1,331 bases of DNA from Escherichia coli (GTDB taxonomy: Bacteria; Pseudomonadota; Gammaproteobacteria; Enterobacterales; Enterobacteriaceae), in the NCBI RefSeq assembly GCF_003334315.1, contig NZ_QOWR01000117.1; one strand, written 5' to 3'. The notes below the pieces were generated by a model. The model did no database searches. It saw only the letters and a program-made list of their open reading frames with translations, and was not told the origin of the DNA. Shown piece by piece: positions 1,269 through 1,331 of the stretch; within the stretch, counting starts at the first letter, position 1; the number at the start of each line of letters is the position of its first letter. The translations under genes were made by a program, and so were the position numbers.

Positions 1269-1303
1269 AGTATTAAGACTATCACTAACTTAAGTGATAC
1301 CAA
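1269..1303 (-). promoter_or_regulatory. Candidate orfA promoter spanning the inner part of the left repeat: -35 TTGGTA (1303..1298), 16-nt spacer, extended -10 TGaTAGTCT (1284..1276)
   Basis: Best sigma70-like match found by eye in the 90 nt upstream of orfA on the minus strand. The -10 is weak (T, A and final T conserved) but has an upstream TG. The hexamer assignment is tentative; IS2 is known to carry its native promoter in or next to the left inverted repeat. Confidence 0.35.
1281..1298. promoter_or_regulatory. Operator-like palindrome ATCACT-N6-AGTGAT overlapping the candidate promoter spacer and -10
   Basis: Plus strand 1281-1298 is atcactaacttaagtgat, with 6-bp arms that are exact reverse complements. 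One half-site is the conserved TATCACTTAA block shared by both terminal repeats. This is a plausible binding site for OrfA autoregulation, which is inference. Confidence 0.35.
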
Positions 1304-1331
1304 CTGTCTGGAGATTCAGGGGGCCAGTCTA
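1290..1331. repeat. Terminal inverted repeat, IRL-equivalent end (promoter-proximal, upstream of orfA); tip is TA rather than CA
   Basis: 42-nt partner of the repeat at 1-41 (alignment given there). The plus strand ends ...GTCTA-3', so this terminus carries TA where IS3-family ends normally carry CA, as described for the IS2 left end. Confidence 0.85.

Follow-up and report, generated by a model that had tools for sequence, protein, structure and literature searches.

The window analysed here, a stretch of DNA of 1331 bases, starts with 5'-TGGATTGGCCCC and terminates in ...GGGGGCCAGTCTA-3' on the plus strand (TG ... GTCTA), and is occupied by two overlapping reading frames on the minus strand. 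The features discussed below, each with the evidence used for its assignment, are as follows:

1..41, minus strand: 41-bp right inverted repeat (IRR), with CA-3' at the end of its minus strand (...GGGGCCAATCCA-3'); comparison with IS2, target duplications at position 1
12..917, minus strand: orfB, open frame of 301 aa that encodes the catalytic, integrase-core (rve) portion; ORF, NCBIfam, Pfam
17..22, minus strand: TGGAAA in the IRR, outward-facing hexamer predicted as the −35 of the junction promoter Pjunc; in-silico junction, PMC3219604/PMC3299598
875..1240, minus strand: orfA, 121 aa, helix-turn-helix (HTH) protein homologous to IS2 InsA/TnpA; ORF, NCBIfam, Pfam
917..923, minus strand: slippery heptamer A-AAA-AAG for a programmed −1 frameshift; sequence, same place as in IS2
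1276..1284, minus strand: TGATAGTCT, candidate extended −10 element of PIRL, a weak resident promoter immediately internal to the left inverted repeat; sequence, identical in IS2
1290..1331, minus strand: left inverted repeat (IRL), 42 bp, 5'-TAGACTGGCCCCCTGAATCTCCAGACAGTTGGTATCACTTAA on the minus strand, with TA-3' at 1330-1331; comparison with IS2, target duplications at position 1331
1326..1331, minus strand: TAGACT, the first six IRL bases, predicted −10 (Pribnow) hexamer of Pjunc; in-silico junction, PMC3219604, conservation

The product of orfA matches the NCBIfam profile NF006928 ("IS2 repressor TnpA") with 265 bits (cut-off 229), that of orfB matches NF006918 ("IS2 transposase TnpB") barely above its cut-off (602.3 vs. 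597 bits), and the transpos_IS3 profile is matched with 208 bits (cut-off 160). The arrangement is that of the IS3 family: two consecutive, partly overlapping ORFs with an A-AAA-AAG −1 frameshift motif, at which a −1 shift gives a predicted fused OrfAB of 409 aa; and an N-terminal HTH with a C-terminal DDE/integrase-core (rve) domain (Pfam HTH_Tnp_1, 1e-17; HTH_21; rve, 1.5e-18; rve_3, 8e-18). Exact copies of the element are annotated with "programmed frameshift" by PGAP. Because the ORFs, the matches to the IS2 TnpA and TnpB profiles, the frameshift site and the fused domains are all present, we read the window as a whole IS3-family element. It is very probably one intact, entire element of the IS2 group, ISEc27/ISEc36, lying in reverse complement; this degree of confidence applies to our explanation as a whole, i.e. 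the identity of the element, the authenticity and conservation of its ends, an IS2-type pathway by homology, and the role that we propose for the terminal TA. The position of PIRL follows its description in PMC3299598, and the exact bases given for it are a candidate assignment.

The minus-strand A run at the frameshift site comprises seven bases in the window (918-924) vs. six in IS2, an additional A standing ahead of the motif (CAAAAAAAG here vs. GCAAAAAAG in IS2). The extra A came from substitution, with no insertion, and so the frames stay separate; it should not be confused with the A7G allele of IS2, in which an insertion made in the laboratory fuses the frames.

The initial annotation took the window for a copy of IS2 itself, an identity that we reject. 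In a gapless alignment of 1331 columns, the window and the IS2A copy of E. coli K-12 share 81.1% nucleotide identity, and their OrfAB proteins share 86%; by ISfinder convention, the same element or isoform is recognized at roughly 95% protein or 90% DNA identity or more. Exact 1331-bp copies encode WP_148116659.1, named "IS3-like element ISEc27 family transposase" by PGAP, and copies that are 98.3-99.8% identical carry the PGAP name ISEc36; our assignment to ISEc27/ISEc36 thus rests on the PGAP names of matching copies rather than on ISfinder reference entries. The correct annotation is ISEc27/ISEc36 (IS2 group), not IS2. A literature search found no mechanistic study of ISEc27/ISEc36. Expansion of an "ISEc27" has been described in stocks of E. 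coli K-12 J53 (PMC8417528); we set this aside as evidence of activity for the element in the window, as the element in those stocks may be IS2.

Copies that are 100% identical were found in five E. coli records and in one Klebsiella pneumoniae plasmid; E. coli 5270 (GCF_024917795.1) and K. pneumoniae KSB1_5D are among the carriers of exact copies. When the best place per record was taken across 5,426 complete E. coli genomes, only 28 records reached at least 99% identity, and 6,717 records fell in the 80-90% band, which is where ordinary IS2 falls. The element occurs in E. coli chromosomes and in plasmids of Escherichia, Klebsiella and Enterobacter. Many E. coli and K. pneumoniae plasmids (matches H22-H30 and H34-H40) carry a 97% identical copy that is broken by an IS110-family insertion, the matches falling into two pieces over about 2.46 kb.

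Written in standard orientation, the sequence is TAGACTGGCCCCCTGAATCTCCAGACA... for the IRL and TGGATTGGCCCCTATATTTCCATACA... for the IRR. The IRL is one base pair longer than the IRR (GGCCCCC vs. GGCCCC): the CCAGACA/CCATACA block begins at base 21 of the IRL vs. base 20 of the IRR (a 21/20 offset), and TATCACTTAA ends at base 42 of the IRL and base 41 of the IRR. At the tips, the two repeats differ at position 2 (A/G) and position 5 (C/T) and share a G at position 7. Of the 5'-TG...CA-3' ends usual in the IS3 family, the IRR has the expected form, whereas the IRL ends in TA-3', the documented IS2 exception; the recipient left end of IS2 is likewise marked by altered positions 2 (giving TA-3'), 5 and 7 and by an additional base pair (PMC3219604). 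The asymmetry is therefore of the IS2 type, as the initial annotation had recognized: the IRL ends in TA-3' and the IRR in CA-3', the cleavage domain of the IRL is longer by 1 bp (42 vs. 41 bp), IRL bases 1-27 are the same as those of the IRL of K-12 IS2, and K-12 IS2A has the same TA/CA ends. Position 7 of the IRR is G in the element of the window and T in IS2. Because this position-7 difference between the two repeats is absent here, and the transposase is only 86% identical to that of IS2, discrimination between the ends could differ in detail from that in IS2.

The ends are supported by insertion sites. Among ten independent insertions with flanks, sampled from copies 93.6-100% identical to the window, nine show perfect 5-bp direct repeats flush with positions 1 and 1331 (GGCAC, TGACA, GGGTG, TTTCC, TAAAC, ATAGG, CTATC, GATCC and AAAAC), a duplication of the length found in the IS2 group (ATTAC stands on both sides of K-12 IS2A). 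The TG start and ...GTCTA finish described at the outset by the initial annotation are thus the true boundaries, and these, like the reading frames, the frameshift site, the anatomy of the ends and their conservation, are direct observations.

Two readings would deprive the terminal TA of meaning. In one, which we met only as a possibility raised by the initial annotation and for which we found no supporting evidence, a sequencing or assembly error altered the last bases, or the true end lies elsewhere. Because the 5-bp repeats abut positions 1 and 1331, at nine insertion sites, such boundary and error scenarios are ruled out for practical purposes; the same termini also recur in dozens of independent assemblies and species, and the chance that TA is an artefact is negligible. 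In the other, TA is the mark of a decayed, immobile copy, the left end of which mutated away from CA. Defective relatives with altered tips do exist, for example in Escherichia albertii (L024), but both reading frames and the frameshift site of the window are intact, many near-identical copies lie at different sites with fresh duplications, and TA is the conserved state across the clade rather than a private mutation; we therefore consider decay highly improbable. The TA end should be treated as an ordinary, functional terminus, and neither as a mistake in the sequence nor as a sign of truncation.

The sole copy examined that lacks a target duplication is an exact copy in an E. coli plasmid (L002, NZ_JBSJZM010000004.1). 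At locus 259-312, the IRR tip of the element and a solo 41-bp IRR of the IS2 type face each other head-to-head across 1 bp (C), an arrangement that suggests either end-targeted insertion or a cross-reaction between IS2-group ends. The change at position 7 of the IRR, together with this arrangement, leaves room for cross-recognition that may occur between co-resident ends of the IS2 group.

How widely the TA end is kept was assessed by scanning a degenerate IRL pattern over one genome per species, which gave 72 loci, about 49 of them IS-like. The IRL starts with TA in 41 of these 49: the tip is TAGACT at 29 loci, TAGATT at nine and TAGACA at three, the other tips being TGAGTG (three loci), TGATGT (three), TGAGCT (one) and GATACT (one). 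We then compared a set of thirteen complete elements of the TA type, with identities to the window of 68-100%: the window itself, IS2A, an element of a K. pneumoniae plasmid, and ten from the species scan, belonging to Aeromonas (four species), Klebsiella, Enterobacter, Rahnella, Buttiauxella and Superficieibacter. With Escherichia, the set spans seven genera; a 5-bp duplication was verified for 12 of the 13 elements, the K. pneumoniae plasmid element being the one without. Every one of the thirteen has a TAGA.T IRL tip, a TG IRR tip, the 21/20 offset and TGGAnn at the −35 position. The initial annotation had proposed a comparison of both ends with other IS2 copies, and its outcome is that TA/CA ends are common to IS2A and to the whole set. 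A dinucleotide alone cannot reach statistical significance; TA carries weight because it is conserved. That the TA tip, the 1-bp asymmetry and the −35/−10 geometry are co-conserved down to 68% identity and across seven genera is a small point added here to what is known, and it fits the published idea that the left end of IS2 balances end activity against promoter function.

In a sister clade (L013 and L014, with L087-L089; the element in NZ_OL331019.1 is an example), TG...CA stands at both ends. L013 and L014, about 68% identical to the window and with both ends read, lack a −10-like tip and keep the 21/20 offset, i.e. the 1-bp-longer IRL; length asymmetry therefore exists without TA. In L014, the sister-clade element (451-1786 in Klebsiella grimontii plasmid NZ_OP378635.1) has a 15-bp direct repeat, CATTCCAACCAGCCC, on either side, and that of L013 an ordinary 5-bp repeat, GAATG. 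The E. albertii element L024 has the only IS2-like IRL tipped with TG (TGAGCT); we rejected it as a natural CA variant, as it has an internal deletion and no duplication and is defective. A 1328-bp element in Rahnella woolbedingensis (L058) combines a TAGACT-type IRL with an IRR tip, TGATCTTGACCC, of the sister-clade kind, suggesting that some ends in the IS2 group are mosaics or recombinants.

For IS2, the functions of the two ends have been determined by experiment. The IRL ends in TA-3' and is inactive as a donor in Step I; the order of events is cleavage at the IRR, formation of a figure-of-eight, and then a minicircle (PMC3299598, PMC3219604). IS2-type ends are characterized by an IRR that serves as the exclusive Step I donor and by minicircle junctions with spacers of 1 bp (about 90%) or 2 bp. 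The account given in the initial annotation, of a TA-bearing left end that is inactive as a donor and of a figure-eight and minicircle, agrees with these reports for Step I; its statement that cleavage and strand transfer start only at the right end applies to that step, and in Step II the TA-3' end is itself cleaved and transferred as a donor (PMC3219604).

Whether TA is the cause of the asymmetry is a separate matter. It could be proposed that TA itself deprives the left end of donor activity and alone forces the one-ended figure-of-eight/minicircle pathway: TA-3' and donor inactivity coincide in IS2, cleavage in the IS3 family usually acts on CA-3' (PMC3219604), and the element in the window keeps TA. 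The experiment that the initial annotation suggested, changing TA to CA, has already been done for IS2, and argues against this proposal: an IRL with CA-3' in place of TA-3' (position 2) gained no donor activity, and one base pair added to the IRR was necessary and sufficient to abolish donor function (PMC3299598). The TA end is, moreover, a competent donor in Step II (PMC3219604), and in L013 and L014, with TG...CA at both ends, the IRL block still lies one base further from the tip. A causal role for TA is therefore unlikely, and we favour an explanation in which the loss of donor function at the IRL is probably due to the extra base pair and to weaker IRL contacts. Making position 2, 5 or 7 of the IS2 IRL more IRR-like lengthened the spacer (PMC3299598), and the 1-bp junction spacer is maintained jointly by TA, positions 5 and 7 and the additional base pair (PMC3219604). 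On this evidence, TA would accompany the asymmetry, and the promoter and an accurate spacer would require it, but it would not act as the switch. What survives of the one-ended pathway foreseen in the initial annotation is the pathway itself, by homology with IS2, and not TA as its cause.

The promoter in question is Pjunc. In IS2, TA-3' creates the functional Pribnow box of this junction promoter (PMC3219604), the −35 element of which lies in the right end, at a mandatory spacing of 17 bp (PMC3219604, PMC3299598) that is supplied by the 1-bp junction spacer (PMC3299598). When the IRR, a 1-bp spacer and the IRL of the window are joined in silico, the result is TGGAAA-17 bp-TAGACT, with the terminal TA as the first two bases of the predicted −10 hexamer; TGGAAA sits 16 nt from the IRR tip, so that a 1-bp junction spacer, and only this length, yields a 17-bp promoter spacing. 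The Pjunc hexamers of the window element were assigned from this geometry and from the descriptions in PMC3219604 and PMC3299598. The weight-matrix score of the modelled junction promoter was reached by 76 of 500 shuffles and is not significant; it uses textbook hexamer frequencies, with a preference for 17 bp built into the scoring, and because these frequencies were supplied by us we do not count it as independent evidence. Support for a Pjunc in this element would come instead from the IS2 experiments and from conservation. A consensus promoter scan of the linear window found none at the ends, which is unsurprising: Pjunc arises only when the ends are joined.

Together, these considerations suggest the following pathway for ISEc27/ISEc36, every catalytic and promoter step of which we infer from experiments on IS2. 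By homology, OrfAB would cleave only the IRR in Step I; the cleaved IRR would join one base outside the IRL, giving a figure-of-eight, which host replication would turn into a minicircle. The abutted ends, 1 bp apart, would assemble Pjunc from TGGAAA in the IRR and TAGACT at the IRL tip, with 17 bp between them. Pjunc would drive production of the transposase that Step II requires; in that step, both ends, the TA end included, would be cleaved and inserted with a 5-bp duplication. TA would thus mainly supply the first two bases of the −10 element and help to fix the 1-bp spacer. It is conceivable, if rather doubtful, that the two sides of the asymmetry are separable, the TA tip being kept by selection for Pjunc and donor inactivation depending on the extra base pair; if the TG...CA sister clade also proved to be one-ended, it would be a natural case of separation of function.

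We searched for naturally abutted ends, using a 121-nt IRR-C-IRL junction as a BLAST query against complete E. coli genomes and plasmids, and exact-pattern scans with spacers of 0-6 nt against metagenome contigs, species-representative genomes and viral contigs. No IRR-x-IRL junction of ISEc27/ISEc36 was found by BLAST in 5,426 E. coli genomes and 72,556 plasmids, and none by the pattern scans in the three other collections. The single metagenome match (L022) is not a junction: there, 6 bp separate an IS2 IRR from the IRL of another IS.

IS2 proper did yield two natural junctions, both with a 1-bp spacer. One is a tandem dimer on the Shigella boydii NCTC 9353 plasmid CP026798.1 (L023, locus 319-2981), in which two full IS2 copies that differ at two bases stand in direct tandem with one C between them, an arrangement of the (IS2)2 type that has no surrounding 5-bp duplication. 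The other, on plasmid p396 of E. coli ST131 (L096, NZ_MK295831.1, 1501-1597), runs from the IS2 IRR through a C into the first 36 IRL bases and then into a stretch of N; either reads across a 1-bp junction must have existed, or the join is an artefact of repeat assembly. Both junctions agree with the 1-bp rule in the literature; they belong to IS2, however, and not to the element in the window, for which the pathway is proposed from homology with IS2.

The top matches to an IS2 junction in the E. coli genomes proved to be other structures. In XL10-Gold (L018, 1501-1613) and Origami2 (L019, 1501-1610), we found internally deleted mini-IS2 remnants of 110 bp, in which an IRL end is joined to an IRR end with the same internal breakpoint, GATAGTC|GGGCTTG; these could be a real deletion derivative or a collapse of the assembly. 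In L020 and L021, IS2 adjoins the ends of other elements. The IS2 IRR tip lies 1 bp (L021, about 1560-1600), 2 bp (L020, about 1560-1625) or 6 bp (L022, 433-467) from IRL-like ends belonging to other, or degenerate, elements of the IS2 group, which points to a tendency to land beside related ends.

In conclusion, the feature studied here is the already-described end asymmetry of IS2 in an already-catalogued relative, and the finding matters little beyond correct annotation. Compared with IS2 itself (K-12 IS2A, NC_000913.3 381260-382590), the element has the same length of 1331 bp and aligns without gaps; it shares the orfA/orfB layout, the position of A-AAA-AAG, the 5-bp duplications, IRL bases 1-27 with the TA tip and the extra C/G pair, the CA-3' of the IRR, and the TGGAAA and TAGACT hexamers at the same spacing. 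It differs from IS2A in overall identity (81.1% for nucleotides, 86% for OrfAB), in position 7 of the IRR tip (G vs. T), in the inner segments of the inverted repeats (IRL 28-32; IRR 23 and 27-31) and in the A run (seven vs. six, by substitution), whereas from the ISEc27-labelled copies, 1331 bp and 100% identical, it differs at no base. IS911, IS3 and IS150 share the figure-of-eight/minicircle pathway, which for the window is proposed by homology, and the formation of a junction promoter (PMC3299598); in these elements, however, both ends are Step I donors, whereas the IS2 type uses only the IRR, with a 1-bp spacer (PMC3219604). The IS256 copies in Tn4001 resemble the IS2 type in that one end is the exclusive donor (PMC3299598), but belong to a different IS family.
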